Made by a program: the position numbers and the translations under genes. A model generated the notes under the pieces. It saw only the letters and a list, made by a program, of their open reading frames with translations, did no database searches and was not told where the DNA came from. A stretch of DNA of 64,000 bases, from the NCBI GenBank assembly GCA_051313645.2, contig JBNRSN020000023.1, forward strand, positions 4,340,001-4,404,000, in the 5' to 3' direction. This document shows positions 2,530 to 62,812 of the stretch, piece after piece; the stretch's first letter is position 1, and each line of letters starts with the position of its first letter. Origin of the DNA: Centroscyllium fabricii. Taxonomy: Eukaryota.

Positions 2530-5521
<2,992 letters not shown>

Positions 5522-5600
5522 CTTAACTCTTCCTGTTGATCAGCACTAAGCTCAAACTCCACTGTAGCAACAACCTAACCGCTGGCCTCACAAGCTCCTG

Positions 5601-5655
5601 TATTTATACTAGTGGGACAGCCTGCATTTCAACAGGGTCTGATATGACCAATGAT
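5601..5655 (-). promoter_or_regulatory. Ferritin core promoter: TATAAATA box plus CCAAT element (same motif upstream of all six copies)
   Basis: TATAAATA on minus strand ~80 nt upstream of each ATG (5601-5608, 19467-19474, 32687-32694, 39424-39431, 46182-46189, 52390-52397). CCAAT lies ~40 nt further upstream (altered to tcaat in copy 6). Confidence 0.75.
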
Positions 5656-5682
5656 GAATGACAATCCCCGAGAGCCAGTCAG

Positions 5683-5998
5683 ACTCTTTTATTTAAAACC
5701 CAATAGAAAAACACCATTATTTACAATATTTACAAAACAAAATAAAACCCCACATTACCGCGCTTGAGCCGCGGCAAACTCCCAAGCCCCAATGTCCACA
5801 AGGTAGGTGTCAAAGTTTCAAGCCCTCCTGCCTTCCTCAGACTCTTTTATTTAAAACCCAATTAAAAAACACCATTATTTACAATATTTACAAAACAAAA
5901 TAAAACCCCACATTACCGCGCTTGAGCCGCGGCAACTTCCCAAGCCCCAATGTCCACAAGGTAGGGGTCAAAGTTTCAAGCCCTCCTGCCTTCCTCAG
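5683..5998 (-). mobile_element. Two tandem 158-bp copies of the 3' terminus of the Tx1 element found at 19549-26906
   Basis: 5683-5840 and 5841-5998 are near-identical to each other, and each matches 19549-~19699 (ends AAATAAAAGAG on minus; TTGCCGCG..CGCGGTAA hairpin). Confidence 0.9.
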
Positions 5999-6563
5999 AC
6001 TGAATCTGAAAGTGTCTCTGTTCTCAGAATAAGAGCTTCACAACATATCTCAGAGTTCGATGAAATTCCACCCTAGAGATGGTGTCGAGCACAACCGGCT
6101 CTAATTTAACCCGTCTTGGGAGATTTGATGGACATCTCGGTGGGTCCAGAACGAGTCCGTGATACCAAGGTTCACAATGTTGAACACTGTGGCGACACGC
6201 CCACCAGGACCATCGAATCCACCTCGGGAGTACTGCGAGACGGCCCCGCCCGCCGGGCGGCGTGACGACGTCACCGCGACTTCCGGCATGATGACGTCGC
6301 CAGGTGGACACCTGGCAGTGACGTCACCAACCGCGGGTCCTTTAAATACGCTGGTTCCAGGTGGCTCAGCCTCTTCGCTACCTGGCCATAGTTGTGTTAA
6401 CATTAAATGATTGTTTTCCGAATTCACTGTCTCTAGCGTGGTTCTTCAGGCCTGCATGCTCTACAGTGGTGACCTCGATACTTGGAACGAATTCCAAGGG
6501 AACATAATGAAGCAGTTGCTGCAGGACTGAGGGCCAAGGTGCCTCAGTTGAATCACAACCAAC

Positions 6564-7303
6564 ATGCCAGCAGGGAGCCAAACAGCGCGACTCCACAGAC
6601 TGGGCCAGAACTACGGCCAAATACCAAACTTGCCAGAGTTCTGGGAACTACGTCCAGCGGCCTGGTTCCTCAGCACAGAGAACACCTACCGCATCCATGG
6701 TGTACAGGGGGACGATCGATATAGCCTGCTCTTCGCGGCCCTTTCACAGACCACGGTCGACCGAATGTGGTCATCGATACAGCACGAACCAACTGCTGGC
6801 AGGTACGAATCTCTTAAGGCCGCGCTGCTAAAAAAATTCACCCCCACCCAATTCGAGCGCGACTGCCAGCTCATTAACCTCCCCGAACTCGGGGACGCAG
6901 ACCCATCGGACCTCTGGGCCCAAATGGAAGCGCTCAATTGCGACCCGGCCACCATTAAGCGCGCCTTGTTCCTCCTCAAACTGCCCCCCTCCGTCAGACC
7001 GGCTCTGACAATCCTCGACCACTACACTAAAGAGCAACTGGCTGAGGAGGCCGACAAGCTGATGAGGGCCGAGCGCACCTGAGCCGCCACGTGCCAACCC
7101 ACGCCTGCTCCACCGGAGCAGTACTACGCGCACCCCAGGTCTGGCCCTAGGTCCGAACCCAGGCCAGTGCGTACCCGTAAAAAGCCACGCACCACAGGCC
7201 CCGGCTGGTGCTACTACCACACCAGGTTTGAAGCCAAAGCGCAGCGCTGCGTCCAGCCCTGCACCTTCAAACCCAAACCAGCCCAAGCCCCACCATGTCC
7301 GTA
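6564..7303 (+). pseudogene. Gypsy gag with in-frame TGA at 7080-7082
   Basis: LPEFW..PAAWF Gag motif. Reading through the TGA gives [19 protein letters not shown], the typical C-terminal Cys/His motif, then TAG at ~7303. Confidence 0.8.
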
Positions 7304-10300
7304 GGCCGCTCCGGAGCACTGCTCTTCGTCACGGACAGCGGCTCAGGCCTCCGCTTCCTCTGCGACACAGGCGCGCAGCACAGCATCGTGCCAGCCTCCT
7401 CCGCAGAAACCAAGCAAGGCACCCAAGGCCCACCACTCGAAGCCGCAAACGGCTCCGAGATAGTTACGTTCGGCACCCGCCAGCTTATCATCAAGCTGGC
7501 AGGCCACACGTACAAGTGGGACTTCATCACAGCCCAAGTCAAAATACCCCTACTCGGGGCCGACTTTCTGTGCGCCCACGGCCTACTGGTCGACGTTACC
7601 CGACGCCGCCTGGTCGACATCCACAACATGTCGACCATCCCATGCTCCACAGGGCCGGCACACCAGACCCACGCAGCGTCCCACTGCCGAGCCTGGAACT
7701 CCGACACGTACGCCACACTCCTCGCGGAGTTCCCAGCCCTCACTAACCCCACCTTTACAGCCCGTACGGCCAAGCACGGGGTGGAGCACCACATCACCAC
7801 CACAGGCCCCCCAGTCCATGCCCACGCACGTAGGCTGGACCCGGCCAAGCTGGAGATCACACGCGCCGAGTTCCACATCATGGAACAACTCGGCATAATC
7901 CGCCGCTCCAGCAGCCCCTGGGCCTCCCCCCTCTGCATTGCCCCCAAACCCGGCGGCGGCTGGCGCCCCTGCGGAGACTACCGCCGCCTCAACAACGCCA
8001 CCACCCCAGACAGGTACCCCGTCCCCCACATCCAAGACTTCTCAGCAAGGCTAGCCGGCTGCACGATCTTTTCAAAGATCGACCTGGTACGGGGCTACCA
8101 CCAAGTACCAGTGCACCCGGCGGACGTCCCTAAGACAGCCGTCATTACCCCCTTCGGCCTTTTTGAATTCCTCCGAATGCCCTTCGGACTCAAAAACGCG
8201 GCCCAGGCCTTCCAACGCCTCATGGACTCAGTCCTGCGGGACTTGCAGTTCACGTTCGTCTACCTGGACGACATCCTCGTGGCCAGCAACTCCCCCCAGG
8301 AACACCTCGTCCATCTCAGGACCCTGTTTAAACGCCTGGTCGAACACGGCCTTATATTAAGCCCCTCCAAATGTCGATTCGGCCTCGAGACGATCGACTT
8401 CCTCGGCCACCGCATCTCCCAGACCGGGGCCATACCCCTGCCCTCCAAGGTGCAGGCGGTTCAGGAATTCCCCCGCCCGCACTCCATCAAGGGGCTGCAT
8501 GAATTCCTTGGGATGGTTAATTTTTATAACCGCTTCATCCCAGGAGCAGCCGCTCTCATGGGCCCCCTCTACCACGCCACCCGCGGCCAGTCCAACAAGG
8601 CTGCGGTCGAGTGGACGGCCGAAGCCAACACCGCCTTCACCGCAACCAAAACCGCCCTGGCCAACGCCACGCTCCTCACCCACCCTAGGCCCAACGCCAG
8701 AGTAGCCCTCACCACCGACGCCTCCGACCGCACCGTCAGAGCAGTCTTTGAGCAGTGGACAGGCGACTCCTGGCAACCCCTGGCCTTTTTTAGCCGACAA
8801 CTCCGGCCCCCGGAGGTCAAGTACAGCGCCTTCGATAGGGAGCTACTCGCACTCTACCTCGCGGTGCGCCACTTCCGCTTCCTCCTAGAGGGCCGCCACT
8901 TTACAGCCTTCGTGGATCACAAGCCACTTGTGTCTGCAATGGCTAAGATCGCCGAACCCTGGTCGGCCAGGCAGCAGCGCCAGCTCGCGGCTGTGTCGGA
9001 GTTTACCACCGACATTCAGCACATCGCCGGCCACGACAACGTGGTCGCTGACTGCCTCTCACGCCCCACCATCAACTCCGTACAAACGGCCGTCGTCTAC
9101 GCCAAATTGGCGGCCGACCAACTGACCGACCCCGATCTGCTCGACCCAGCTACCAACCTCCCCGGCCTGCTCTTGGCCACCGTAGCACACGGGCCCACAG
9201 CCACGGTGGTCCGCTGCGACGTCTCCCTCCCGCAGCCCAGACCCGTCGTCCCCCACGCATGGAGGCGACACATCTTCCAGACCCTCCATGACCTGTCCCA
9301 CCCCGGCGTCCGCGCGTCCACCAAGCTGATCTCTGCGCGTTTCGTTTGGCGCGGCCTGCGCAAGGATGTCCGCGCCTGGACCAACACCTGCAATGCCTGC
9401 CAGCACGCCAAGGTGCACAAGCACATCAAGGCGCCACTTGAAACGATCGCCATCCCAGCTAGACGCTTCAGCCACGTCCACATTGACCTGGTCGGACCAC
9501 TACCACCATCACGGGGACATACACATGTCATGACTATGGTCGACCGCAGCACCCGCTGGCCAGAAGTGGTCCCCCTCACCGCTACCACCACCGCGGACCT
9601 GGCCAGGGCCTTCATTGCCACCTGGGTCGCACGTTTCGGCGTCCCCACACCGCCATCACGTCAGACAGGGGCCCCCAATTTACCTCAACCCTATGGGCAA
9701 CCATCGCCCACGACCTCGGGGCAACCCTGCACCGAACCACCGCCTACCACCCACAGGCCAATGGCCTCTGCGAATGGTTCCACCGCTCCATCAAAGCTTC
9801 CTTGCGGGCCAGCCTCAAAGACGCGACCTGGACCGACCGCCTGCCCTGGGTAATGCTCGGCCTACGTTCAGCGGCCAAGGAAGACCTGCACGCCTCAGCG
9901 GCGGAACTCGTCTATGGCCAACCCCTAACCGTACCAGGCGTGTTCGTCGCAGAAACCAACGCCCCCTGGTCAGCCGACCGCTGCCTCAAGGAATTCAATA
10001 ACCAGGCAGCGGCGTTCAAACCACTCCCGGTGGCCCGGCACTGAGAGCCGGCAGCACGTGTTCCAGATGGCATCGAGAATGCCAAGTATGTGTTTGTCCG
10101 CCACGACGCACATCGAACACCACTACAGCTACCGTACGACGGACCGTACAGAGTGCTTCGGGCGGGACCTAAGACGTTCCAGATAAAAATGGGCAACAGA
10201 GCTGAGACTGTCTCAATCGACCGGCTCAAACCGGCACACGTAATGGCGGGTGAGACAACAGTCCCCGCGCAGCCACCAAAGCGAGGACGCCCTACCGCAC

Positions 10301-10389
10301 CAAAGCCCGCCCACACTCCCACGCAGAACAAGGAGCAGCGCACGACACGTGCTGGCCGCATCATCAGGCCACCTCAATGCCTCGCCTGA
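7295..10389 (+). pseudogene. Gypsy pol (protease CDTGA, RT YLDD, RNase H TDAS, integrase) with frameshift near 9650 and stop at 10042-10044
   Basis: ORF 7295-9853 diverges after FGVP. The integrase ([23 protein letters not shown]) continues in another frame through ORFs 9802-10044 and 10090-10389. Confidence 0.9.
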
Positions 10390-10804
10390 GACTCATCTTT
10401 TATGCTCCAATTTTTTATTTTTACTTTATGCTCCCTTCTACTTTAGGTTCAGCTTTATTCTCCCTCACAGATTCTGGGGGGGAGCTGTGTGGCGACACGC
10501 CCACCAGGACCATCGAATCCGCCTCAGGAGTACTGCGAGACGGCCCCGCCCACTGGGCGGCGTGACGACGTCACCGCGATTTCCGGCGTGATGACGTCGC
10601 CAGGTGGACACCCGGCAGTGACGTCACCAACCGCGGGTCCTTTAAATACGCTGGTTCCAGGTGGCTCAGCTTCTTCGCTACCTGGCCATAGTTGTGTTAA
10701 CATTAAATGATTGTTTTCCGAATTCACTGTGTCCAGCGTGGTTCTTCAGGCCTGCATGCTCTACAACACAATAGATTGAACCAGACTGACCTGCACCAGA
10801 CAGT

Positions 10805-12691
10805 TGTAAGGGGTCTGCGCCGTGTTTTTACGCGACTTGGGGTCCTATTGCCTTGCTCTAGCCACCGGCCAGGCCTCGCGCAATAATCCTCCCCCGTGAG
10901 TGGTTCGACCCGCTCGCCCTTACGATTCTCTACGCTGGACTTAGATGCAGGAAAGAGTGATGCAGAAACTGGACTCGTTGGAAACTTGGCTTTAGTAGAA
11001 GTTCAAATGGATCTTTATTATAGCAGACCATAGATCTACACACATCAACCATGGGACACACACGTCCTGTATTAAAGTAATATTAAATATAAACATTCGT
11101 AGATAAATATACCCGACACACGCTACTATCTTATAAAATGGGGAACACATGACACATCAAAAAAGGGGCCAACACTCTATCGATTGCCCTATAACCACCC
11201 TCCCCTCTATTGCCTAAACTATGTCCAGGTGTGTAGGATCGGGGAACATGCTCACCACTCGGTTAAACTCGGGGTCTGCTACGAAGTTCGCGTCTCTCGG
11301 CTGCAGCGTTGGTCGTCACGTGGCTGTGGAAGATTCGGGAGCCCACTTGTTTACGTCTCCCTCTTGGCGGCGGCTGGGTCTGCTCGGGCTGGCCCCGGGC
11401 GGGTCTCTCAAGGCTTTTCTACCTCTCAACACCGAACCGCACTGTCTTCCTGGCTGAACCGGGCCCTGTGGTGAGCCGGTCCTACCCTCTCGAGCCGATC
11501 TGTAACTGACTGCCTTTCTTGTCGTTTGTCCGAATGTCTCTCCCGGACTGTGCTGCCCGTCTTAACCTCGACTTAACTGCCGAACTATGGGTTCCGTGCC
11601 CAATTCTCCAGTGCCTCGTTTTGCTTCTTTGACGCTACCCCACTCTCTGTCAAGATAGCTCTTCCAGTCTCGGTTAAATAGCTCTACCAGCTTCTGGTAA
11701 CTGGCTCTACGAGGGCCTTCAGCACCTTCTGCACTATGTCCCAGTGCTAGCAACCAACTATCTCACACTCTGCAATGGTCACCGCTCGGGCCCAACACTA
11801 TCGTCCCGTGCCCTCCAGTACCTGCTCTTTGCCTAGAGCAGCACCGTGCCTCAGACGAGGAGAGAAGATGCACCCTCGCCCACCCTGCACCCAGAGATCG
11901 AAACGGGAGCCTCCGAAGAAAGCCCACCAGAGTCACCGAACGAGTCGCGTAGAGATCATAGAGTGTTCATAGAGCGTGCCTAGAGTAGCCAAAACTGTGC
12001 TGTGCCCTAGGAGCCCCAAGAAGAAGTCTCTGAGAGAGAGCGCGATTCAAACTGTACCAAGTGTCTTAGAGTTATAGAAAAATACTGTGGGCTTATGTCC
12101 CGCCCAAATCGTGGAATGTTTTGTGATATTAAATGGTTCGGATGTCTCCTTTGTTTAGTTAACCTGTCCGGGATGGCCCGAGAACAGCCTTAACTGCTTG
12201 TGAAAGCGTTTTCCATTGTCTGGAAATTGTGTAAATGGTCTACCGATGGTATTGCTGTACAAATCATGAGTCTGACTATCCGGGTCAGTTAATCGATCTC
12301 TGGCAGTATCATATTTATCCATTAACAGGGTGCTTCTTTATTGTTGGGCTAAACGGGTCCAACAATCGGTTTTGGGGAGGACTTGTTAGTTCTTTACAAC
12401 AAGTGTTATTCCCCAGCGCCTCCATGTCTGGGCGCTGGCTGGGTTTCGCGGGCTTTTGCAGGGCTCATGCATAATGTTTTGTCTGAACGGCAGCTAAGTG
12501 TATTCCGATGTCTCGAGAGTTCTGGTCGGCTTGTCACGGGGTCTAGTGGCCATCTTAGGGGCCCCTTTCTTTCTCTCTCTTTCAACAAGCCGCAGCCCTT
12601 TCTGCTCTGCAGCCATTTTGTTCAATAAAAATGTCCAATTAAACCGGCTGTCTCCTGTCGTTTATGAATCGGTAAAATTGCGACCTTTACA
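10805..12691 (-). mobile_element. 1.9-kb solo-LTR-like insertion
   Basis: Termini TGTAAGG...CCTTTACA and 4-bp TSD cagt (10801-10804/12692-12695). It interrupts a spacer sequence that is contiguous in paralogous units (gacagtccacagtg). No coding motifs. Minus-strand AATAAA near 11015; the orientation call rests on this alone. Confidence 0.75.
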
Positions 12692-13902
12692 CAGTCCACA
12701 GTGAATCTGCAAACCAGCCCACAACGAGTTGGGGAAATGGAAAGTGGATCAGTGGGGAGCTTCAGACAGAATCTGTTGCTCCGTCACTGTAAAGTGCGAT
12801 GTGGAGTTTTATCCCCATGAAATTTAAGAGCTGTAAAGTCCTGTGTTTAGTTTGCACTGTTTCCTCATCTCCTGCAAACCCCGGGTCTGTTGTGAGGAAC
12901 GGTTTTAGACCTGAAAGGTCAAGTGTCTCATGTTTTCTCGACCGATGCTGCCTGACCTGCCGAGTGTCTCCAGCGTTTTCTGTTTGAGATTTCCAGTATC
13001 TGCAGTATTTCAGTTTGTGTTCCTATCCTGTTGTAACTCTGGTCCAACTACCAGGCATTTAACAGAAGGACCACAAAACCTCCAGAACAGAGAACAGTGA
13101 ATTACATAAACTGTCCAACACAGAAATAGGATGTTTGGCCCAACTCTCTTCAGCAAATAGCAGTTGATGGTTGGTCAATTGTTAATTTTAAATCTGAGAT
13201 TGATAGATTTTTGTTAACCAAAGCTGTTGAGGGACGTGGGACAAAGGCGGGTACATGGAGTTAGGTCACAGATCAGCAATGATCTCATTGAATGGAGGGA
13301 CAGGCTCGAGGGGCTGAATGGCCTCCTGTTCCGAATCAGCTCATGTTTATTCTCTACACAAGCACCAGTCCTAATCCCACGAGGCTGCCCCGTTGCTATA
13401 CCATGGCATCTAATCTTGTTTAGGTACATGATTGGAAAGAGGTTCAGTTGTAACTACGGTGGTGTTTGAACGTAGCTCCCACCAACAGTAAAACTGAAGA
13501 TTGTCGCCCAAGTATGTCAGAACTACCATGTGAGTGCGCGAGACACATGTCCCATCAATCAGCTGTACCATTCCGGAAAGTCCAACGAGCTTTCATTCCC
13601 CTTGTGGTGTGGAGAACCAATGTATTTTCCAGTTTAGTTCCCACCAACAGTCCAAACAATATTTTATTTGTAGTCAGTCTTACCATTTATAGCAGCTCAC
13701 CATCGCTGCCAGCTCAGTCCTTGAGAGATTATTTAATGCGTTCGGGTGTCTCAGTATTTTCAAATGGACTGCGCTCATTCCCTTTGGGTGAACTATTCTT
13801 TGAACATTAATCGATGTTTATTTTGGGGCATCTTCAGGAACACTCCAAAATCGCCACACACTTTGCGTGTTAAAGGCAGGCTTTGAACAAATTGTGGGCG
13901 TT

Positions 13903-14645
13903 ATTGCAGAGGAGATTCACCAGGCTGATACCTGGGATGGCAGGATTGACGTATGGGGAGAGACTGGGTAGACTGGGTTTGTACTCTCTGGAGTTTAGAA
14001 GATTGAGAGGGGATCTCATCGAAACGTATAAAATTCTAACTGGTCTGGACAGACTTGATGCAGGAAGAATGTTCCCGATGGTAGGAGAGTCCAGAACCAG
14101 GGGTCATAGTCTAAGGATAAGGGGTGACTCATTTAGGATGGAGATGAGGAGGAATTTCTTCAGCCAGAGGGTGGTGGGGCTGTGGAATTTGCTGCCCCAG
14201 AGAGCTGTGGAAGCTACTACTTTGAATAATTTTAAAACAGAGATAGACAGTTTCCTGGAAGAAAAGGGAATTCGGGGTTATGGTGAGCAGGCAGGCAAGT
14301 GGACGTGAGGATAGGTTCAGATCGGCCATGTGATCTCCTGGACCAGTTTTCGATCGCCTAGATGGGTCGGAGAGGAATTTCCCAGATTTTTTCTTCCAAA
14401 TTGGCTACTGGGTTTTTTATCCGGTTTTTCGCCTCTCCTGGGTGATCACATGTGTTTGGGTGGGGTGGAGAGTTAAAATAAAATTGAGGTTGGGATCAGA
14501 TCAGTCATGATCTTCTTGAATGGCGGAGCAGGCTCGAGGGGCTGTAGCGCAAGGCAGTAACGGACCCCAAGTCGTACAATAAAATATACGGCGCACGCTC
14601 CTTACAGGGCCGATTGGCCTACTCCTGCTCCTATTTCTTATGTTA
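13903..14645 (+). mobile_element. CR1-clade LINE 3' fragment (HER1-like)
   Basis: ORF 13883-14308: QRRFTRLIPG..YGERL..LYSLE.RRLRGDLIETYK..TRGH..FFSQRVVGLWNLLP is the CR1 ORF2 C-terminus, followed by 3' tail sequence. Absent from the paralogous flank near 47830. Confidence 0.9.
14543..14606 (+). mobile_element. 64-bp TG...CA insertion with 4-bp TSD, homologous to one end of the 1.9-kb LTR
   Basis: gggc|TGTAGCGCAAGGCAGTAACGGACCCCAAGTCG...CGGCGCACGCTCCTTACA|gggc inside the LINE tail gctcgaggggc-cga; similar to the reverse complement of 10805-10860. Confidence 0.75.
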
Positions 14646-15651
14646 GCAATATACCAAGTGAATTAAATATACCAAATGAATTAGTGAAAATAATAATGCA
14701 TAGCTGCTGGTGGATCTGTACAACAGTGATACTGCAATAGAAAGGAAGTGAGTTTGTGTTTTTGAGACGAAGAATCACTTATTTAAAAGAATTTATATGT
14801 TTACTGATTTATCTCCACTTTACCCAACACCAACAAACTCCAACTTGGACAAACTGCAGCTTGATGTAAAGTTTTATATAGACTGGTGGCTCATTTAACC
14901 CCAGACATCAAGGTTAGCAGTTGGTGGGGGTAGAAAGTAGAAAAGGATGTGGGGGGGCGCAGGGGGAAGAGAATGTTCAACAGAAGTCAGCCTGCCCAAA
15001 GTGGAAGTTTCCAAGATGGCCAACGCTGTACTGTGTGCACATGTCACAAAGTTTTGGCAGTCCAGTGAATGACTCGTGGCATCAGTCAAATGTAAAGACA
15101 CCTCAATAGCAGGTCATCCCACCACCGTTCTTGAGAGGTAAACATTTGAAGCAGGACACCAGGCAGATATTCTCCATTTTCCTGACTGAAGAATCAATAG
15201 TTAAAGCATCAACTCAACACATTAACTCAACCCCCTCCACCCTGCCCCATTTCCTTGTTTTAAACCTCCACAGATTAATGACATCTTTCTGGCAGATGTT
15301 ATAAAAATACCCATCACAGATGGTTACCAAGAGTTCAGAAAACCATTAGAAGCATCTCCAGTGATGGTTTTGAAGATGTGGGCACAGCCATCTTGGACAC
15401 AGGGAGGGACTGCTGTATTTTTAAACTTTGATCATATATTACACAGCTGTGTTGTGCAGTGGGATCTCAGTAAGCAGATCAACTACTTATACAACAAAGA
15501 CAAACCAGTTCAATGATGAATAACTTTTATTTCCATGTACTGCGACAGTTAGATGAGAAAACTGGGAAATAACCACAACCAAAGCATTCACCATTAGAAG
15601 TTGGTCACTTCATTTCCACCATGTATAGAACTAATGGTTCAAGAATCCCCA

Positions 15652-19387
<3,736 letters not shown>

Positions 19388-19667
19388 CTTAACTCTTCCT
19401 GTTGATCAGCACTAAGCTCAAACTCCACTGTAACAACAACCTAACCTGTGCCTTCACAAGCTCCTTTATTTATACTAGTGGGACAGCCTGCATTTCAACA
19501 GGGTCTGGTATGACCAATGATGATTGACAATCCCCGATAACCAGTCAGACTCTTTTATTTAAAACTCAATAGAAAAACACCATTATTTACAATATTTACA
19601 AAACAAAATAAAACCCCACATTACCGCGCTTGAGCCGCGGCAAACTCCCAAGCCCCAATGTCCACAA

Positions 19668-19830
19668 GGTAGGGGTCAAAGTTTCAAGCCCTCCTGCCTA
19701 CGAGGCAGGGGGTCAAAGTCACAAGTCCATATGCCCGCAAGGCAGGGGTAAAAGTCACAAGCCCTCATGCCCGCAAGGCAGGGGTCAGTACCACGAGTCC
19801 TCATGGCCGCAGGCAGGGTCCAAATTTTCC
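19668..19830. repeat. ~36-bp minisatellite, ~4.5 diverged units, in the Tx1 3' UTR
   Basis: Units like gcaggggt(c/a)aaagtcacaagccctcatgcccgcaag. Confidence 0.8.
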
Positions 19831-20020
19831 AAGCTTTCTGGTCTTCGTCACCCGCCCATCCGGACAGCGGGTCTCCGGGAAAACACACAGATGAGGGTCG
19901 GCGCTCTCAGCGAATGGCTGGTGCAGATCCGGCAGTCTCCGGTTGTCGATCCACTCCATCTGCCGGGCCCTCCGCATCGCCGAGCGGATCCTCCCACTCT
20001 CCTGGACAAGCGGCCTGCAA
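19828..20020 (-). pseudogene. Processed (exon3-exon4 fused) ferritin-derived segment inside the Tx1 3' UTR
   Basis: Manual ungapped alignment of 19828-19980 to local ferritin exons 3+4 gives 114/153 nt identical. AMRRARQMEWIDNRRLPDLHQPFAESADPHLCVFPETRCPDGRVTKTRKLG vs [51 protein letters not shown]. Confidence 0.9.
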
Positions 20021-20057
20021 AGAAGACTCAGAAACACTTGATTAACATAATCAAAAC

Positions 20058-23000
20058 TTAAACTAAGATCACCCCGGCCGGGGTGACAATGCACTCCAGC
20101 CCCCGCGGTGCCCACCGGTCCCGAAAAAGTTCGAGCGTGCCGGTGGACACCGCGTGCTCCATCTCCAGGGCCACCCGGGCGCGAACATAGCCGCGGAAGA
20201 GAGGCAGGCAATCGGGCCGAACCACCCCCTCGACTGCCCTCTGCCTGTTCCTGTTAATGGCCACCTTGGCCAGGCCCAGAAGCAGTCCCACGAGGAGGTC
20301 TTCCGACCTGCCCTCTCCCCTCCGCACCGGGTGGCCGTAGATCAGGAGCGTGGGGCTGAAGTGCAGCCAAAAGTTGAGGAGCAGCCCCTTCAAATAATGA
20401 AACAGGGGGTGCAACCTTTCGCACTCACTGTAAATATGGAACACGGTCTCCTCCAGGCCACAAAAACAGCACTCAGCCTGGGAATCCGTGAACCTACTTA
20501 ATAACTTGTTGCACGGGACTGCTCCGTGCAACACCCTCCACGCCAAGTCCCCAATAAATAAAGGGAGGACACCCGCATAGAGGGCACCCCAATGGGGACC
20601 TCCGCCTCCGCCGGACGCCAAGATGGCATGCCAGGGCGTGTCCGGACGGCAGGCGAAGAGGGCAAAGTGGAAAGTGTGCAGGAGCAGCCCGTACAGGAAA
20701 CGCCTCCGCGCAGAAACAAAAGGCACGGAGGGCATTTCCCCGAGACGGCTCAGGTTGTGAGGCGCCGGTTCCCGAGAGGGGTTTCGGGGCTTTGCGCCAA
20801 TGAGGAATTCCGGCCGAACGGGGGTCAGTTCGGACGGGATCTCCCCACGTGCCTGAGCCTCCTCGATACACCTAGTGGAGTCGGGGCCCAGTGCTGCTTG
20901 CAGTATCACGATGGAGTCGGATGCGCGCTGGATACTGGTCCAGGAGAGGCGATGCGCCAATTCCTCCGGCGCCATCCAGCCCGCTCCTCCGCCATCGAGC
21001 AGGTCCCCGACCCTGGTCACCTTGCCGGCCACAGCCCTACCCTCCGCCAGCCGCCCACGCCAGGGATCGCGGAGGTGCGGATTCCTGAGCAGCGGCTCCC
21101 GAAGGAGGGCCGCCGCTCCTGACGGGGGAGAACTCCGCCTGGAGGCGACACTGTTCCAAACCCACAGTAGTTCCTGGTAGAAGACAGGCAGCTCCCGCAG
21201 GTAGGCTCGCGTATGGCCTAATTCCACAAACAGGAGCTGCGTGTCGTAGTTGAGGCCGTGCAGCTGGCGGAAGAAAAACGTCGCCAACGCACACCATCGA
21301 GGAGGATTCTCATCGTTCAGGTATCTCTGCAGGGCCTGTAGACGGAAAGTCGCCGCCTGGGTGCGCAGGCACACCAGCGCCTGACCGCCCTCCCTAAGCG
21401 GGAGACACAGAACCGCGGCAGAGACCCAGTGCTTCCTTTTGCCCCAGAAGAAGTCAATGAGCCTCTTCTGCATCTTGGCGACAAACGCAGGGGGCGGGAT
21501 CAAAGTGACCAACCGGTACCACAACATGGCGGCCACCAGCTGGTTTATGACCAGCGCTCGACCCCTGTAGGACAGCACTCGGAGCAGTCCTGTCCAGCGT
21601 CCTAGGCGAGTGGAGACTTTGGCGTCCAGCTCTTGCCAGTTCGCCGGCCAGGCGTCCTCGGCAGGGCTAAGGTAGACTCCCAAGTAGAGGAGGTGCGTGG
21701 TGCTCCAGGCAAAGGGCCTGAACTCCTCCGGCAGGGAGTCCACCTGCCACTGGCCCACCAGGAGCCCGGAACATTTCTCCCAGTTGAACCTGGCGGAGGA
21801 TGCGTCAGAGTAAATCTGCTGACATTCCCGCATCCTCCGCAGGTCAGCGGGATCCGTGACCATGAGGAGCACGTCATCGGCGTAAGCCGAGAGGACAACC
21901 TCCACGCCCGGCCCTTGCAGAGCCAGTCCCGTCAACCTCTTCCGCAAGAGGCGCAGGAAAGGCTCCACGCAGATGGCATATAACTGACCGGACATGGGGC
22001 ATCCCTGACGCACCCCCCTCCCAAAGCGAAGGGGCGCCGTCAAAGACCCGTTAACCTTTATCAGACACTCCGCGGCGGCATACAAAAGTCGGATCCGGGC
22101 GACGAAATGCGTCCCGAACCCGAATGCGCGCAGAGTTCCGAAAAGATAGTCGTGATCCACCCTGTCGAATGCCTTCTCCTGATCCAGGGAAAGGAAGGCG
22201 ACTGACAGACCAGCCCTCTGGGAATGGTGGAGCAGGTCCCGGACCAGATGGATGTTATCGTGGATTGTCCGGCCCGGGACCGTGTAGGACTGGTCGGGAT
22301 GGATCATGTGGGCCAGCACGGTGCCAAGGCGGACAGACATAGCCCTGGCAAAAATTTTGTAGTCCGTGCTGAGGAGGGACACCGGGCGCCAGTTCTTTAG
22401 TAGGCGGAGGTCGCCCTTCTTAGGCAGCAGGACGATGACCGCCCTGCGCCAAGAGAGAGGCATCTCCCCGGTCGCCAGACTTTCTCCCAGGACCCGCGCG
22501 TAGTCGCCCCCCAAGACGTCCCAGAACGCCCTGTGGAACTCCATGGTCAGCCCGTCCAGCCCCGGGGACTTTCCCCTCGAGAGCTGGCTAAGGGCGCCCG
22601 TCAGCTCCGCCAAGCTTAGCGGAGCATCCAACTGCTTGGCGCCCCCCGGGCTGACCTTCGGCAGGTCCTCCCACAAAACTCTGCACGCAACCTCGCTGGA
22701 CGGATCCGCAGAGAACAGATCCCCGTAAAAGGCCCGGGTCTCCGCGTTGATCCCCTCCGGATCCGAGACCAGGGATGCGTCGTGGGCCAGCAGCCCCAAG
22801 AGCTGCTTACGGACCCCCCGTCTTTTTTCCAGCGAGTAGAAGAAGGGGGAGCCACGGTCCAGGTCCCGAAGGAACCGGATCCGCGACCTGACGTACGCGC
22901 CTCGGGACCCAACGAGCTGCAGGTCCTTCAGCGCTTCCTTCTTCTCTTCGTACACCTTCCGCAGGGCCGGGTCGTCGACAGCCTGACCGAGACGGGACTC

Positions 23001-23957
23001 CAGGTCGAGCACCTCCTTCTCTAACCGCCCGACCCGGGCCTCCCGCCTCTTGGTCGACCCCCTCGCGTACTCCCGACAGAAGAGACGGACGTGAGCCTTG
23101 CCCACGTCCCACCATAGACTCAAGGAGGGGAAGCCCCCCTGCTTCCTTCTCCAGTCGGCCCAGAACCGACGGAACGAATCCCCGAACCGCACGTCCTCCA
23201 GCAGCAGGTTGTTAAAATGCCAGTACGCGGACCCCCCCCCTGCGCACAACCGAGTGAGCTCCGCCCACACCAGGTGGTGGTCCGTGCACGGCACCGGCCG
23301 CATGGAAGCCGCCGGAACGCAGGAGACGTACGCCCGGGAAATGTAGAGGCGGTCGATTCTGGAACCTCCTCCTCCAGACTGCACGTGAGTGAAGGCGCTG
23401 GAGTCGGGATGGAGATTTCGCCAGACGTCCACCAAGTCGAGGGACCCGACCAGGTCCGTCAACTCCTCCATTGCCGCCCGGCAATGCGGGGGGCCCGAAC
23501 GGTCCCTCGCCTCGAGGGAGCAATTAAAATCCCCCACGAGAATGACGCACTCGCCGACGTCGATGGAGCCCAGAAGAGCGGACACTTCTTCAAAGAAGCG
23601 CACTTGCTGCGCACCGGCCTGAGGGGCATACACGTTCACTAGATGGAGCGGCATGCCCCCCAGGCGTACAGTGACCTGGAGCAAGCGGCCCGGCATGAGC
23701 TCCTTGACCCCCAAGATCTCCGGCTGAAAATGCGGGGCCAGCAAGATGGCCACCCCACTGGAAACTTTGGAGAGGTGACTCATGTTGACCCCCCCTTGCC
23801 ACTCCAGGAGCCACGTGGCCTCGTCCTCCGGAACGGTGTGGGTTTCTTGCAGGAAGCACACCGCATACTTCCCGTCCCGAAGGACCGAGAAGATGTCAAA
23901 TCTACGGCGCGCATCTCTGCTGCCGTTGACGTTGAGGCTGGCTATGGTTGTCTTCAT
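20058..23957 (-). CDS. Tx1 ORF2 (APE endonuclease + reverse transcriptase + CCHC), 1299 aa, intact
   Basis: SLNVNG, FLQETH, GDFN, RIDR, TDHH (APE); KSPGLDG, WRPVSLL, LDQEKAFDRV, GVRQGCPMSG, YADD (RT); CCFC..H...C. DRGSPFFY and LVWAEL are Tx1-like. Confidence 0.96.
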   Translation of the reverse strand: MKTTIASLNVNGSRDARRRFDIFSVLRDGKYAVCFLQETHTVPEDEATWLLEWQGGVNMSHLSKVSSGVAILLAPHFQPEILGVKELMPGRLLQVTVRLGGMPLHLVNVYAPQAGAQQVRFFEEVSALLGSIDVGECVILVGDFNCSLEARDRSGPPHCRAAMEELTDLVGSLDLVDVWRNLHPDSSAFTHVQSGGGGSRIDRLYISRAYVSCVPAASMRPVPCTDHHLVWAELTRLCAGGGSAYWHFNNLLLEDVRFGDSFRRFWADWRRKQGGFPSLSLWWDVGKAHVRLFCREYARGSTKRREARVGRLEKEVLDLESRLGQAVDDPALRKVYEEKKEALKDLQLVGSRGAYVRSRIRFLRDLDRGSPFFYSLEKRRGVRKQLLGLLAHDASLVSDPEGINAETRAFYGDLFSADPSSEVACRVLWEDLPKVSPGGAKQLDAPLSLAELTGALSQLSRGKSPGLDGLTMEFHRAFWDVLGGDYARVLGESLATGEMPLSWRRAVIVLLPKKGDLRLLKNWRPVSLLSTDYKIFARAMSVRLGTVLAHMIHPDQSYTVPGRTIHDNIHLVRDLLHHSQRAGLSVAFLSLDQEKAFDRVDHDYLFGTLRAFGFGTHFVARIRLLYAAAECLIKVNGSLTAPLRFGRGVRQGCPMSGQLYAICVEPFLRLLRKRLTGLALQGPGVEVVLSAYADDVLLMVTDPADLRRMRECQQIYSDASSARFNWEKCSGLLVGQWQVDSLPEEFRPFAWSTTHLLYLGVYLSPAEDAWPANWQELDAKVSTRLGRWTGLLRVLSYRGRALVINQLVAAMLWYRLVTLIPPPAFVAKMQKRLIDFFWGKRKHWVSAAVLCLPLREGGQALVCLRTQAATFRLQALQRYLNDENPPRWCALATFFFRQLHGLNYDTQLLFVELGHTRAYLRELPVFYQELLWVWNSVASRRSSPPSGAAALLREPLLRNPHLRDPWRGRLAEGRAVAGKVTRVGDLLDGGGAGWMAPEELAHRLSWTSIQRASDSIVILQAALGPDSTRCIEEAQARGEIPSELTPVRPEFLIGAKPRNPSREPAPHNLSRLGEMPSVPFVSARRRFLYGLLLHTFHFALFACRPDTPWHAILASGGGGGPHWGALYAGVLPLFIGDLAWRVLHGAVPCNKLLSRFTDSQAECCFCGLEETVFHIYSECERLHPLFHYLKGLLLNFWLHFSPTLLIYGHPVRRGEGRSEDLLVGLLLGLAKVAINRNRQRAVEGVVRPDCLPLFRGYVRARVALEMEHAVSTGTLELFRDRWAPRGLECIVTPAGVILV

Positions 23958-23989
23958 TACAAGAGCACAGTCTAAACCTCTACCTAAAC

Positions 23990-26035
23990 CTAACAGGAGG
24001 AGGGAGCGCGGTCGCTAGTCGTCCGCCACTCCCTTTCCAGCCCAGCGAGGAACTTCTCGATCCGACGCTGCTCGGCCGGGCTCCCGCCCTCAGCCGCGCC
24101 CATTGTTTTGGCGACGGCGCGGACGGAATTAATGAGCAGCGCCAGATCCGTCCACCTTTCGAGGGCCAGCCAGACTATATCTTGGCGACCCCGGCACGTG
24201 GCGACAAAATCCCAGAGATCCAAAGCGGGGACGAGGGGGGACCCAGAGGGGGGCACAAGGACATCCACCGCCTCACTGGCGTCGGTCCAACTCGCTCTCC
24301 GTGTCCTCCGTCGGGTCCCCGTCCTCCTCCGAGAGGTCGTCGTCCGCCGGCCCCTCCTCTGTCCCGGTCCCACCCCCAGGATCGGCGGCAGAGGATTCCT
24401 CACCGGGCTCCTCCGGAGATGCCAGGTCAGGCGGCGGCGGCCCGGGGCCTCCCTCCGACCCAGGCACCGGGGCACACGGGGAAACAGGGGAGAATATTAT
24501 TCCCAGTTCCCCCCCCACCCGCGGCGCCGGAGACGGAGTCGGGGGGGCTTCCCCCTCATTGCCACCAACCACCGACCCAGCAGACTGGGAAGTATCAAGG
24601 AAAAAGTTGACTATGTCGAGCAGGTCCTGGGAGACGTCCTGACTGTTTTCCACGGCCTCAGCCTCAATGGCCTCACCCACCCCAGTCCCCAGGGCGCCAG
24701 ACATGGACTTATGTTCTATTGGCTTCGCGATCCCCCCCACGGCGAGCGGGGCCCTTTCCCCGCCCCCGGGAGGCACAGATCGGACAGACTCATCTGTCGT
24801 TTCCTCCCGAGGGACAGGCAACTCCCGCTGAACGCCGATAGTGGGGAGGGACTCGGCACCGACAACAGACGATGATACCCCTCGCGAGGTGGGACCCCGC
24901 CTCTCGCGGCGCCCTTCCTCATCCCCCAGTGAGTTACGCCTCCTTTTTAGTGTGGAGGATCTGGAGACCTCCATAATCTCCGAGGCCTCCCCCTCCGTTC
25001 CCTCCTGCCGAGTGGGAGGCTTCTTGGATCCCTCGAGCCCTGGCCCGACCGCAGGCGTTGATTCGTCCGCTTCGGCGGTTGCGGTCATGAGCCCGGACAC
25101 TAGACCCCCCCCAGTCCCAGTCTCGGCAAGAAACTCTGCAAGAAATGTCTCTGAGATGGCTGGGAAGTCATCAATATCAGTCGACTCGCCCTGGGGAGCC
25201 GCCCGAAGGTGTTTTTTCTTCCTCCGCGCCTTCCTTCCAGTCGGACGCTCCCCCCACCCCCGTCGGAGGCCGCGACAGCGACAGCGTCGACCACTGCCAT
25301 CGACCGCGCATCAGGTGTCGTTGGCACGTTGACAGAAACGGTGGGAGGTGCGGCGGCGCCAGCCTGAGATGTTTTAGCGGCCTTGGAGGCGGGGCAGTTC
25401 TTTCTTATGTGCCCCACCTCTTTACAGGCGTGGCACCGCACTTCGTCCGAGCTCCAGAATATCCGATAGGTGGTCCCCTCATAACTGACACCAAACGCAC
25501 CCTCGGTGACCTCCTCCCGCGCCAACTGAAGGAAGAGCTGGCGCCGGAAGGAGAAGACGTGCCGGAGGCTGGCCTCCCTGCAGCCGAGCGGAATGGGCAC
25601 GATCCCCGACCTTACCTCCCCCAGGTGACGTAAATGGGGGAGGAGGAGCTCAACCGGAACAAAGGGCGGGACATTGGACAATACAATCCTCTGCGCGGTG
25701 GCCCCAAGAGGATCCACCGGCACGAAGGTCCCGCCCACGGTGAGCCCCTTGGTTATTGCCAGGTGGACCGCCCGCTCTGACCGCAGGAAGAACACAGCCT
25801 TCCCTTGCATTTTTGAGGCGGCGACGATGGCTGAAGGGCCGACCACTTCAGCCATGGCCTTTACGCACGCCTCAATGCTCATAGTGGGGTGAGCATAACA
25901 CTTAACCCCGTGTTTCCTGGTTATAAGGCGAAACGGTGATGGGGCAGCAAAACCAGCGGAAGGAGCTGTGGCCTTAGCTGCCACACTCGCATATGGTCTC
26001 GCTGACCCCGCCACCATTGATGGTAAACTCGCCAT
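23990..26035 (-). pseudogene. Tx1 ORF1 (zinc knuckle) broken by two frameshifts
   Basis: ORF pieces 25100-26035 (CHACKEVGHIRKNC), 24273-25100 and 23990-24475 together align with the single ORF1 at 53599-55743. Shifts fall near 25255 and 24285. Confidence 0.85.
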
Positions 26036-27090
26036 CGTGAGGGGGGGTGCTTATCGCACAGGGCTACGCTCCCGCCCCCCCCCAGTCACAGGCCTGCTGA
26101 TGGTAATAACGGCCTCTGTGGGTTTTATTTTGCTGGAGCAGAGGGAGCTTGGAAGGCCCTCCCTGGTGATGGTAAATAGGAGAGGGCCCTTCTCCCCTCC
26201 GCTCAATTGACACTTAAATCACAGAGTCTATGAAGTGCCCCTTTAAGAGACAGGCAGAGAGAGAGAGAGCAAGGGGCTGGGTCTCCACTCAAGGTGGTGG
26301 GTGGGTGTTTGCAGGGGTGCACTCTCTACTACAAACACAAAGTCTTTGATGGTCTTCTCGTGGGGGGAGAAGATGTCTTCACCTGGGAAACTGCTGAAGC
26401 TGCTCAGGCTTTAGTCCACCACCAGGTCTTAAACAAAACTTAATTGGGTGATATCTTCTCCTGGGCAGCTCCAGCTGTCCCAGGTCAAGCAATAGGGAAG
26501 GGTGTTTGTTAGTGGTGTGTGGGGCCTAGTTGTTGCATAAACCACACACACTCACACACACCCCTAGATGTTCTGTCACCCTCTTCTTTCCTCCCCCCAC
26601 TTAAACACAAAACCTTAAACACAAAGTCTCTGTGAGAGTGCACCTTTACACCAACCTGTCGATGTTTCCAATGACTCTCCCTCTTTCTGAACAGATGTAG
26701 GTTGTTCTTTTCCTCTTCTCTCTCTCTCCCTCCTGTAGTGGAGTCCAGTTGGGGAAGCAGTGCTGGAATAGCTTCCCTGTTGTTCCTTCTGGTCTCCCGG
26801 TCTCTCCTCTGGCACTCCAAAGGCTCACTGCTGCAGCAAAACACAGACTTCTCCTCTCCCTTCTCCACTGCAAAAAGACACAACCTCCTCTCAGCTGGCC
26901 AGACTCGTCAGGATCTTCCATGAATCCAGGCACCAATTAACAAAGGAGAGGGGGGTGGGGTTTGAGATACCCAGAGCCAATCAGAGCTTTGGAATACAGA
27001 GGTTTGGATGATGATTTTATGATGTCATTGCTGTTGGATTCTTTAACTTTGCTCAAATTGATCGGAAAGTGCCTCTTCTCTTTTGGTTAA

Positions 27091-52304: not shown

Positions 52305-53598
52305 CTTAACTCTTCCTGTAGCTCAGCAATAAATTCAAACTCCACTGTAACAACAACAACAACCTAACCTCTGTCCTCACAAGCTCCTGTATTTATACTA
52401 GTGGGACAGCCTGCATTTCAACAGGGTCTGGTATCATCAATGATGATTGACAATCCCTGGGAGCCAGTCAGGATCTTCCATGAATCCAGGCACCAATTAA
52501 CAAAGGAGAGGGGGAGGGGTTTGAGATACCAAGAGCCAATCAGAGCTTTGGAATACAGAGGTTTGGATGATGATTTTATGATGTCATTGCTGTTGGATTC
52601 TTTAATTTTGCTCAAATTGATCGGAAAGTCCCTCTTCTCTTTAGGTTAATACTTTGCCAAGAGCTGGGCAGCTGAGAGGAGGTCTTTTTGCAGTGGAGAA
52701 GGGAGAGGAGAAGTCTGTGTTTTGCTGCAGCAGTGAGCCTTTGGAGTGCCAGAGGAGAGACTGGGAGACCAGAAGGAACAACAGGGAAGCTATTCCAGCA
52801 CTGCTTTCCCCAACTGGACTCCACTACAGGAGGGAGAGAGAGAGAAGAGGAAAAAGAACAACCTACATCTGTTCAGAAAGAGGGAGAGTCATTGGAAACA
52901 TCGACAGGTTGGTGTAAAGGTGCACTCTCACAGAGACTTTGTGTTAAAGGTTTTGTGTTTAAGTGGGGAGAGGAAAGAAGAGGGTGACAGAACATCTAGG
53001 GGTGTGTGTGAGTGTGTGTGGTTTATGCAACAACTAGGCCCCACACACCACTAAAAGCACCCCTTCTATTGCCTGGCCTGGGACAGCTGGAGCTGCCTAG
53101 GTGAAGTCTCTTTGATTAATTAAACATCGTTAAGACCTGGTGAGAAGGACTGAGCCTGGGCTTCTCCAGCTGTTCCAGGTGAAGACATCTTCTCCCCCCA
53201 CCAGAAGACCATCATCAACATCTACAGACTTTGTAAATTTCCAGCGGAGGGTGCACCCCCACCTGTCAACACCCACCCACCCATCCATCCTGAGTGGTGA
53301 CCCAACTCTTGTGGTCTCCCTCCTTCCCACCACCCCTCTCTCTCTCTCTCTCTCTCTCTCTGCCTCTTTCCCTAGAGGCACCTCAAGCATATTATTTCTT
53401 TCATTTTTCTCTATTGCCAATTGAGCAGAGGGGAGAAGGCCCCTCCCCCTTCTGTCATCAAGGGGAGGGGTGTGTCTTTATTTAATCACTCCCCACCCCC
53501 CTCTGCTCAAGAGGAAAATCAAAACCTGAGGCCATTCTTCATCTTAAGGCCTGTGACTTGGGGTGAGCGTGGCTCCAAAAACCCCCCCACCTGGTAGC

Positions 53599-55743
53599 AT
53601 GGCGACACCATCTTCGCCGGTGGCGGGGACATCGGGAACGTATGCGGCCGTGGCATCCGCTGCCAAGACCACGGCTGCTCCTGATGCCCCGTCACCATTC
53701 CGGCTGCTGACAAGGAAGCTGGGGGTGAGGAGCTACGCTCACCCATCTATGACAATAGAGGCATGCGTCAAGGCCATGGCTGGGGTGGTCGGCCCCTCAG
53801 CCATCGTCGCGGCCTCTAAAATGTACGGGAAGGCTGTGTTCTTCCTCAAATCCGAGCGGGCGGCGGCCCTGGCCATTGAACAAGGGCTCACCGTGGGCGG
53901 CACCTTCCTGACGGTGGACCCTCTTGAGGCCGCCGGGCAGAGGGTGGTCCTATCAAACATCCCGCCCTATATTCCCGGTGAGCTCCTCCTCCCCCACCTA
54001 CGCAAACTTGGGGAGGTGAGGTCAGGGATATCGCCCATCCCGCTCGGGTTCCGGGAGGCCAGCCTTCGCCACGTCTTCTCCTTCCGGCGTCAGCTGTTTA
54101 TGCAGCTGGCGCGGGAGGAGGACACTGATGGCGCGTTCCTCGTGCTGCACCAGGGGACCGCCTACCGCGTCTTCTGGACGACGGACGGCGTGCGGTGCCA
54201 TTTCTGTAAGGAGGTGGGGCATATCAGAAAGAACTGCCCCGCCTCCAAGGCCGCCAATAATAGTGCGGCCAAAAAGGGCACCGGCGCCACTCCTCCCCCA
54301 GAGTCAGACCGCGCGTCTCGGAAGTCGGGCGCGCGGGAGTTGCCGGAGGCCAATGTCATCACGGCCTCCGGCGGGGGGGAGCAAACGTGTCCACACACAA
54401 AGAGGGCGCGGATTAAATCAAAACAAAGGAGGGAGGGTCCCCTGGTTGGGGATGCCCAACTGTCAGACCTGCCAGATATAACACCCGAGTACCTCGAAAA
54501 TGGGCAGGTTCAAGATGGGAGCAAGGAGGGCCCCGAGTCTGAGCCTGCGGCCGCCACTGCTACGGCAGAAAATTTAACATCTGCGGCAGGGCTCGGAAAA
54601 GAGGGGCCCGAAATAACTATTCAGCCGGGGGGAACGGAGGAGGGGGTGGCCTTAGGAGAGATGGAGGTCGCCCCCCCTCAGGGTCCCCTCAGCGGAAAAA
54701 GGAAGCACGACTTCGACTCCCAGGATCAGCAGGGGGGCCGTGATCATGAGGGCGGTCCCCCCGAGGGAGCGGAGTCGTCATGCTCCGCGCCCCCTCCCAA
54801 AATCATTATAGTCGCCAAAGACGGGCAGGAGTCGCCTGTCTTGCGGGAGAGTGGGGCGGAGGAGATTGTCCTGCCCGCGGCTCCCGGGGATGGGGATCTG
54901 GCCCTGCCCGCGGGAGGGGACGCGGATCAACCTGAACAACATGTAGACCCTCAGGGGGAAAAAAAAAGTTGCCTCGGTGGGTCGAGCGTGCTGGAGGAGG
55001 GCGAGGTCGAAGGGTTAGACCCCGCCCAAGACACAACCATGACTATCCAGCATATACTCAGCTTCATCGAGGATTGTGGCCAGGGTAACCTACAGGCTGG
55101 GTCAGTGGTTGGTGGCGGGGAGGGTGACGGCTCACTCACCCCTCCCTCGACATTGGCGTCGGACGCACAGGAGAGCGTGGAATTTGAATATATCCCCGTC
55201 TCTCCGTGCTCTCTGGCGCCTGAGGAGGAGGGGAGCCCCGAGCTGCTGCCTTCCTCTGGCCTGGCACCCCGGGTGGAGCCCAGGGAGGACTCCTCTGCCA
55301 TCGATCCTGGGGGTGGGATCGAGACAGAGGCAGGGTCGGACGGTGCAGCCGGGCCGTCAGTCGCGTTCTGCGCGGCTGATGGAGTGGACGCCGGTGGTAA
55401 CCTTCCGGAGGGGGACGGGGACTCGGAGTGGGACGAGGAGCTGGAGTCCATCGCCGATGAGGCGGCGGACGACCCCGAGCCCTCCGCTGAGTCTCCTCTC
55501 GTCCTCGTGGCGGAGCTCCGGAAATTTATGGCCACGCACCCGGGTCGCAAAAAAATGGTCCATAAGGCCATCGAAAAGTGGCCGGAGCTGGCGCCGCTCA
55601 TTTCGTCCGTTCGCGGCGCCATTAAAACCTTGGCCGCGGACAAAGGTGACAATGACATCGAGCTGCGCCGGCTCCAAAAGTTCCTCACTGGGCTGCGGAG
55701 GAAGAGGCGTGAGTCCAAGGACTGCGCTCCTTCCTCCCGATAG
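53599..55743 (+). CDS. Tx1 ORF1 (nucleic-acid-binding, CCHC zinc knuckle), ~714 aa
   Basis: First ATG at 53599 (MATPSSPVAG); AIVAASKM, LSNIPP, LRHVFSFRRQ, CHFCKEVGHIRKNC; long acidic low-complexity linker. Confidence 0.92.
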   Translation: MATPSSPVAGTSGTYAAVASAAKTTAAPDAPSPFRLLTRKLGVRSYAHPSMTIEACVKAMAGVVGPSAIVAASKMYGKAVFFLKSERAAALAIEQGLTVGGTFLTVDPLEAAGQRVVLSNIPPYIPGELLLPHLRKLGEVRSGISPIPLGFREASLRHVFSFRRQLFMQLAREEDTDGAFLVLHQGTAYRVFWTTDGVRCHFCKEVGHIRKNCPASKAANNSAAKKGTGATPPPESDRASRKSGARELPEANVITASGGGEQTCPHTKRARIKSKQRREGPLVGDAQLSDLPDITPEYLENGQVQDGSKEGPESEPAAATATAENLTSAAGLGKEGPEITIQPGGTEEGVALGEMEVAPPQGPLSGKRKHDFDSQDQQGGRDHEGGPPEGAESSCSAPPPKIIIVAKDGQESPVLRESGAEEIVLPAAPGDGDLALPAGGDADQPEQHVDPQGEKKSCLGGSSVLEEGEVEGLDPAQDTTMTIQHILSFIEDCGQGNLQAGSVVGGGEGDGSLTPPSTLASDAQESVEFEYIPVSPCSLAPEEEGSPELLPSSGLAPRVEPREDSSAIDPGGGIETEAGSDGAAGPSVAFCAADGVDAGGNLPEGDGDSEWDEELESIADEAADDPEPSAESPLVLVAELRKFMATHPGRKKMVHKAIEKWPELAPLISSVRGAIKTLAADKGDNDIELRRLQKFLTGLRRKRRESKDCAPSSR

Positions 55744-55768
55744 AGAAAATTAGTATTGTGCTACTGAC

Positions 55769-60374: not shown

Positions 60375-60410
<36 letters not shown>

Positions 60411-60642
60411 CTTTCCCTAGAGGCACCTCAACCATATTATTTCTTTCATTTTCTCTATTTCCAATTGAGCAGAGGGGAGAAGGCCCCTCCCCCTTCTGTC
60501 ATCAAGGGGAGGGGTGTGTCTTTATTTAATCACTCCCCACCCCACTCTGCTCAAGAGGAAAATCAAAACCTGAGGCCATTCTTCATCTTAAGGCCTGTGA
60601 CTTGGGGTGAGCGTGGCTCCAAAAACCCCCCCACCTGGTAGC

Positions 60643-62787: not shown

Positions 62788-62812
62788 AGAAAATTAGTAT
62801 TGTGCTACTGAC

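Follow-up and report, generated by a model that had tools for sequence, protein, structure and literature searches.

The Tx1 clade of retrotransposons that lack long terminal repeats (non-LTR) includes families with multicopy targets, such as Mutsu and Dewa. Keno, Kibi, and Koshi, whose targets are also multicopy, insert specifically in RNA genes or microsatellites. In Xenopus laevis, Tx1L combines an apurinic/apyrimidinic-type (APE) endonuclease with a reverse transcriptase (RT) and is described, in the accessible part of the source, as stringent for its target, the DNA transposon Tx1D (PMC1950540). Tx1 families with a preference for LTR retrotransposons have already been reported: as far as the accessible part of PMC4494074 goes, the crocodilian Tx1-8_Crp, Tx1-4_AMi, and Tx1-Mar group prefer insertion in other transposons, two families of the crocodilian set go into specific LTR retrotransposon groups, the preference is partial (13 to 90% for SINEU partners), and sequential tandem insertions occur around a target-site duplication (TSD). 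Here, we analyze TxA, a Tx1-like element, in a 64,000-nucleotide (nt) window of the Centroscyllium fabricii genome (G000:C745:4340001-4404000; genome size, 7.2 Gb), where it interrupts two ferritin promoters at the same nucleotide, 162 nt upstream of the ATG (−162). Our analysis makes it probable that TxA is a loosely Gypsy-targeting family with hundreds of scattered copies, whose main site is one nucleotide in gag, and that the ferritin promoters are a secondary hot spot in which the two −162 insertions likely arose independently.

Judged from its sequence, TxA is a Tx1-clade non-LTR retrotransposon. Its copies bear the marks of target-primed reverse transcription (a fixed 3′ end, varying 5′ truncation, and TSDs), and the protein encoded by its second open reading frame (ORF2) matches Pfam Exo_endo_phos (residues 6 to 227) and RVT_1 (512 to 761) and is 49% identical, at 100% cover, to the Xenopus TX1 149-kDa protein (P0005). 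The ORF1 match to zf-CCHC is weak, at 20.5 bits just below the 20.8 cutoff. Like the transposon-targeting Tx1 families, TxA has independent copies at one position of another transposon; this main target type, a Tx1 element inside an LTR element, is already known. TxA differs from Tx1L in being loose (16 to 20 of 100 copies at the main site) and in targeting Gypsy gag, and from Keno, Kibi, and Koshi in being confined to no gene target. It differs from the crocodilian set in that the accessible part of PMC4494074 names no LTR group or site and describes no gene-cluster hot spot or captured mRNA piece.

The window lies in a cluster of at least 40 tandem four-exon ferritin genes and promoters (C745, ∼3.64 to 4.85 Mb; one block inverted). 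Six of these genes, all on the minus strand and matching Pfam Ferritin, are in the window, with ATGs at 5521, 19387, 32607, 39344, 46102, and 52304. The junction CCAGTCAG|ACTCTTTTATTT, also found as CCAGTCAG|ACTCTTTT, begins at 5683 and 19549, exactly 162 nt upstream of the ATGs of copies 1 and 2; both insertions are on the minus strand, as are the genes, so that the position and co-orientation given in the first-pass annotation were correct. That annotation also held that the insertions do not follow the paralog tree, and we agree: the other four window copies are empty at −162 (32768, 39505, 46263, and 52471), as are the nearest paralogs by intron 1 of copy 1 (L053 at 96.4%, L051, L054, L048, and L050) and of copy 2 (L039 to L041 at 91%, and L036 to L038). 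Exact empty −162 sites number 20, all on C745, and the promoters of copies 1 and 2 align at −162 with 75% identity over 240 nt. As for the insertions themselves, the copy 2 element is full length, as had been proposed, with a 5-nt TSD and an open ORF2, but its ORF1 is split over two frames; copy 1, taken earlier for a single 5′-truncated insertion, instead carries two tandem 158-nt units (U1 and U2) in place of ∼136 nt of promoter. A 77-nt contig of public run X1 spans the junction with copy 1-like variants, but because it extends only 22 nt beyond the joint, and because the assembled sample may itself be X1, we left it uncounted; in run X10 (organism C) the promoter is covered and the TxA end is not, which is no proof of absence. 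Both filled promoters have private substitutions (5460 to 5682 and 19330 to 19548; ∼7 in copy 1) while the ferritin reading frames are still open, which suggests relaxed selection or escape from homogenization.

Genome-wide, the exact terminal 33-mer of TxA marks 227 copies and a looser 28-mer marks 845 exact 3′ ends. We surveyed the flanks of the first 100 of the 227 copies, taken in contig order. Sixteen lie at one nucleotide, CAGCTGCCCAG(A)^, of a Gypsy-type repeat, antisense to it; they have 11 different closed end points, with 5 more running off the locus, and because the end points differ these copies are independent insertions. Hitchhiking on an amplified Gypsy element was rejected on these differing end points and on the TSDs. 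Thirteen copies adjoin sequence of their own family, 4 of the 13 having their end in the Gypsy site; another 3 are transductions with a poly(A) tail; and 68 are dispersed (67 after one duplicate was dropped), with only (C/T)(A/T)G as a motif (3.9 bits); none of the 100 is in a ferritin promoter. Pfam matches put the main site between a retrotransposon gag and a zinc knuckle/aspartyl protease, with RT downstream, and we read the target repeat, from these domains, as a Ty3/Gypsy element. Gypsy-type flanks occur at 360 junctions genome-wide versus 1,928 exact empty sites; the figure of 360 overstates occupancy, since it takes in sister subfamilies as well as sites re-created at the 5′ ends of elements. 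The Gypsy junction is also present as a loose end in public run X4 (organism B). The flank CCAGTCAG, by comparison, is found at 5 junctions genome-wide, only 2 of them ferritin, and 2 of 33 GTCAG junctions are in ferritin. We examined 30 of the 74 intact TxA 5′ ends: 16 lie in tandem, 12 in Gypsy, and the other 2 at ferritin −162. Scored with a matrix built from dispersed sites, the ferritin 12-mers reach 4.2 and 4.8 bits, values attained by 1 to 2% of window 12-mers, versus 8.1 for the Gypsy site.

These flanks do reveal a target preference, for the Gypsy nucleotide and a motif of 3 to 4 nt, but not the ferritin-type flanks that the first-pass annotation had anticipated in proposing a family specific for ferritin promoters, which as a protein-coding multigene target would have been of a new kind. 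That specificity fails: the copies are scattered in their hundreds, and the most-used single site lies in Ty3/Gypsy gag. Other TxA insertions were seen in the element's own 5′ untranslated region (UTR) at two sequences similar to the Gypsy target, GCTGCTCAG^ and GCTGTCCCAG^ (L099, L109, and L155; window ∼26410 and ∼26480), and in Gypsy-like sequence away from the main site (L228 and L004 to L007; the last four, all on C1078, go back to a single event by segmental duplication).

Ferritin promoters are nevertheless likely a secondary hot spot, hit independently by TxA: as targets they are in excess over chance, though not specific. In 42 promoters × 180 nt, ∼6 × 10⁻⁴ dispersed ends would be expected, and at least four direct events were observed (−162 twice, ∼−306, and ∼−340). 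The generic rate of GTCAG insertion is ∼2 × 10⁻⁶ per site; two insertions at one base among 42 promoters are far above this, if independent. DNA of the Tx1 lineage, whatever its age, is present no more than 700 nt from −162 in 23 of 42 promoters versus 3 of 54 control windows, although the 23 are related by paralogy and by our reading represent about a dozen events, and 2 of the 3 control matches come from one locus.

The −162 nucleotide has served twice as a 3′ junction and once as a 5′ joint, and it probably took up one more insertion. The 5′ joint belongs to a daughter of a TxA copy at ∼−340 in type B promoters, whose 25-nt TSD is common to three paralogs and whose junction has four genome matches, all on C745 within the cluster. 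The fourth match is this daughter: poly(A)-tailed, 99.5% identical to the copy at L159, and 134 kb away, it lies with its 3′ end inside intron 1 of a ferritin gene, and a CAG match of 3 nt joins its 5′ end at −162; no other transduced daughter of that source is detectable. Other poly(A)-tailed daughters bear either a flank of the copy 2 type or the 5′ joint of copy 2 itself. Three dispersed TxA copies carry ACCAGTCAG plus poly(T), two with clear 14-nt TSDs. The joint is present in one further daughter and its segmental duplicate, and among 5 matches it adjoins TxA nowhere else; this implies that another TxA once inserted at the regenerated −162 site. In copy 1, U2 appears to have arisen by a second insertion, at TTCCTCAG^ (∼−306), during which the cDNA switched to U1; tandem units with one break point but different subfamily markers are also present at L087/L088. 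The promoter stretch has 8 same-strand YCAG sites, and by our arithmetic two of three insertions would reuse one base about 1 time in 3; with so few sites in a hot region, such reuse is not surprising.

Several points weigh against this reading, in addition to the overstated Gypsy count and the paralogy of the promoters. Direct 3′ junctions at −162 are only two, and the window was picked for them. TxA specificity is loose, with 68 of 100 copies dispersed. Transduced flanks of 9 to 10 nt are too short to prove a ferritin source, and the tandem structure of copy 1 takes two steps under any model. Finally, U1 and the copy 2 element belong to the same minority class (no extra A at the junction and C at column 96), which makes up 11 of 37 no-A ends and weakly hints that the two have a common origin.

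That hint bears on the alternative that the first-pass annotation had itself raised, namely, that one −162 insertion was copied to its neighbor by gene conversion or unequal recombination, perhaps aided by the TxA stub at −306 in copy 1. A distance of 14 kb within the tandem cluster separates the two copies, and U2 would supply homology on the far side. However, among 42 aligned promoters no derived variant is common to copies 1 and 2, and differences between the two lie 9 and 11 nt from the junction, which leaves only the last 8 nt for the start of any conversion tract. The T17 of copy 2 is also absent from U1, simple recombination yields one unit where copy 1 has two, and −162 was used as a 5′ joint by a separate event. 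We consider copying between paralogs unlikely, though it retains some weight.

TxA carries a piece of ferritin in its 3′ UTR. The first-pass annotation took it for a ferritin UTR and thought that promoter targeting would explain it; the piece is instead coding and spliced, with exon 3 joined directly to exon 4, and hence not directly explained in that way. It aligns at 127 to 133 of 182 columns to four of the six window copies; alignments to the other two are longer. The exon 4 side alone scores 65, versus a maximum of 33 in 1,000 shuffles. The alignment gives no support to the idea that the piece keeps the end of intron 2, as it would after read-through from an intronic copy. The 16-mer at the exon 3|exon 4 junction occurs 355 times (control, 4). 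We fetched 30 of these loci and scored 26: all 26 align to the TxA 3′ sequence and are 69 to 89% identical to ferritin, with the copies least like TxA closest to ferritin. Such a graded series of subfamilies argues for one ancient capture of a spliced mRNA, inherited by successive subfamilies. Judging by motifs, the donor was presumably a ferritin of the cluster type rather than the heavy-chain type. A literature search, which did not extend to most subscription papers or to Repbase, turned up nothing about this cluster or about a Tx1 element that had captured ferritin.

TxA 3′ junctions fall exactly after the short (C/T)(A/T)G motif, and the Gypsy site CAGCTGCCCAG(A) and its copy at TxA's own 5′ end are both used repeatedly. 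Some TxA transcripts extend past the 3′ end and are polyadenylated 9 to 15 nt into the flank. The extra A seen at many junctions lies in the target in 13 of 13 TSD-resolved extra-A copies, versus 3 of 7 no-A copies, a pattern that fits pairing of a read-through tail with the primer; the junction state tracks the subfamily marker, 26 of 27 T96 ends being no-A. RNA that runs past the element end and pairs with the target, or travels with a poly(A) tail, is described in the accessible part of PMC7265360 for read-through priming by R1Bm and SART1 and for L1 3′ transduction; those elements belong to another clade than TxA, for which the observations are genomic footprints.

Read-through RNA could also act as a guide: tails from a source in a ferritin promoter (CUGACUGGU), the captured ferritin piece, or both would direct the ribonucleoprotein to ferritin loci again, and there to the same base. 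The poly(A)-tailed daughters prove that such tails exist, junction type follows sub-lineage, the single detectable daughter of the −340 source came back to the cluster, and older ferritin-bearing subfamilies are also present in ferritin promoters; in addition, accurate reverse transcription by R1Bm is reported, in the accessible part of the source, to depend on target sequence farther downstream (PMC7265360). On the other hand, the one returning daughter is a single event, and the captured piece matches exons 3 and 4, ∼2 kb from the site, at only ∼72% in TxA. Nor is there a general excess of GTCAG, as might be expected if −162 sources biased their offspring genome-wide: we counted 14 no-A GTCAG junctions among an estimated ∼200 no-A ends, near the 1 in 16 expected after CAG. 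RNA-guided homing therefore seems to us quite unlikely, and we likewise give a low probability to the broader picture of a Tx1 lineage that, carrying a captured piece of spliced ferritin mRNA, is steered by RNA to the ferritin cluster, launches new copies from the promoters there, and so has, besides an endonuclease-defined Gypsy target, a protein-coding multigene family on which it homes. An endonuclease specific for the ferritin promoter sequence, as the first-pass annotation had it, is highly improbable given the survey, the GTCAG junctions, and the matrix scores above, even though occupancy of −162 (2 of 42 promoters; 4.8%) is comparable in order of magnitude to that of the Gypsy site (≤16%).

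Under the reading that we prefer, a Gypsy-targeting family with a promoter hot spot, the APE endonuclease would prefer the Gypsy sequence but tolerate CAG, and pairing of the read-through RNA tail with the nicked primer would set the exact junction. The cause that we favor for frequent landing is that the CCAAT-rich ferritin promoters may be accessible in the germ line; with ∼8 same-strand YCAG sites available, the same base could then be reused. The ferritin piece would have been captured once from spliced ferritin mRNA by an ancestral element and have decayed since. Most likely, capture and promoter insertions both reflect an abundant germ line ferritin transcript and an open locus.

TxB is a sister family of TxA with an 86% identical ORF2, a short 3′ UTR without the ferritin piece, and no Pfam zf-CCHC match in ORF1. 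It has the first 220 nt of TxA and inserts ∼10 nt inside the TxA 5′ end. The array that begins in the window (G000:C745:4392664-4485323) consists of 12 TxB and 1 TxA, and a 43.5-kb array at G000:C745:4048625-4092144 consists of 5 TxB and 1 TxA. Both arrays lie in ferritin promoters; within them the TxB units are stacked head to tail, with 5′ stubs of 180 to 220 nt between some units.

Features of the window; positions are counted from its first nucleotide.
Feature	Position	Strand	Details
Ferritin copy 1 (type A)	5420..5682	-	Exon 1 coding part and proximal promoter up to −162; Pfam Ferritin on exons 2 and 3
Unit U1	5683..5840	-	Terminal 151 nt of TxA with TCCTCAG of promoter site −306; in place of ∼136 nt of promoter
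Unit U2	5841..5998	-	Second 151-nt TxA end; break point as in U1; other subfamily marker (T at column 96); at TTCCTCAG^ACTG (∼−306)
Unrelated LTR retrotransposon	6188..10765	+	Upstream of copy 1; 278-nt LTRs; RT/RNase H/integrase
Ferritin copy 2 (type B)	19286..19548	-	Exon 1 coding part and proximal promoter up to −162
Full-length TxA	19549..26906	-	7,358 nt
Captured ferritin coding piece	19826..20004	-	In TxA 3′ UTR, sense to element; exon 3|exon 4 splice junction at 19891/19890
TxA ORF2	20058..23957	-	1,299 amino acids; predicted APE-type endonuclease and RT
TxA ORF1 region	23990..26035	-	Two frames in the copy 2 element; weak zinc-knuckle match
TSD GTCAG	26907..26911		5 nt; partner at 19544-19548; empty promoter continues with GATCTTCC
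Start of 93-kb tandem array	52664..64000	+	12 TxB stacked in the 5′ end of a single founder TxA; located ∼−340 to −360 of ferritin copy 6; TSD of 25 nt; runs on to G000:C745:4485323

The LTR retrotransposon upstream of copy 1 is near complete, with LTRs 96% identical, and has a relative at C745:4117642-4122387. Rfam, at the gathering threshold, gave no match in the whole window, so no iron-responsive element was called in the six ferritin copies. Older ferritin-bearing or related Tx1 subfamilies are found at ∼−270 to −310 of other ferritin promoters (L049, L052, L056 to L058, L064, L065, and L067; L055; L061 and L152). The 3′ flank of the L049 group (GACTTTCA plus a T run) is similar to the −306 promoter stretch, and this group may be another promoter-to-promoter transduction. 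A very small insertion at L198 (C933:71139050), in which two 11-nt TxA ends flank the 13-nt 5′ joint of copy 2, resembles the product of template jumping from one RNA 3′ end to another.

What is new is that one lineage joins a host mRNA fragment, fixed in the 3′ UTR of a long interspersed nuclear element (LINE) across many subfamilies, with repeated traffic into and out of the promoters of the same gene family and with a sister family that has switched to the first family's 5′ end. The lineage offers a natural series for weighing endonuclease, RNA tail, and chromatin in Tx1 site choice, and TxA and TxB, as a close pair of enzymes with different targets, can be used for mapping specificity residues.

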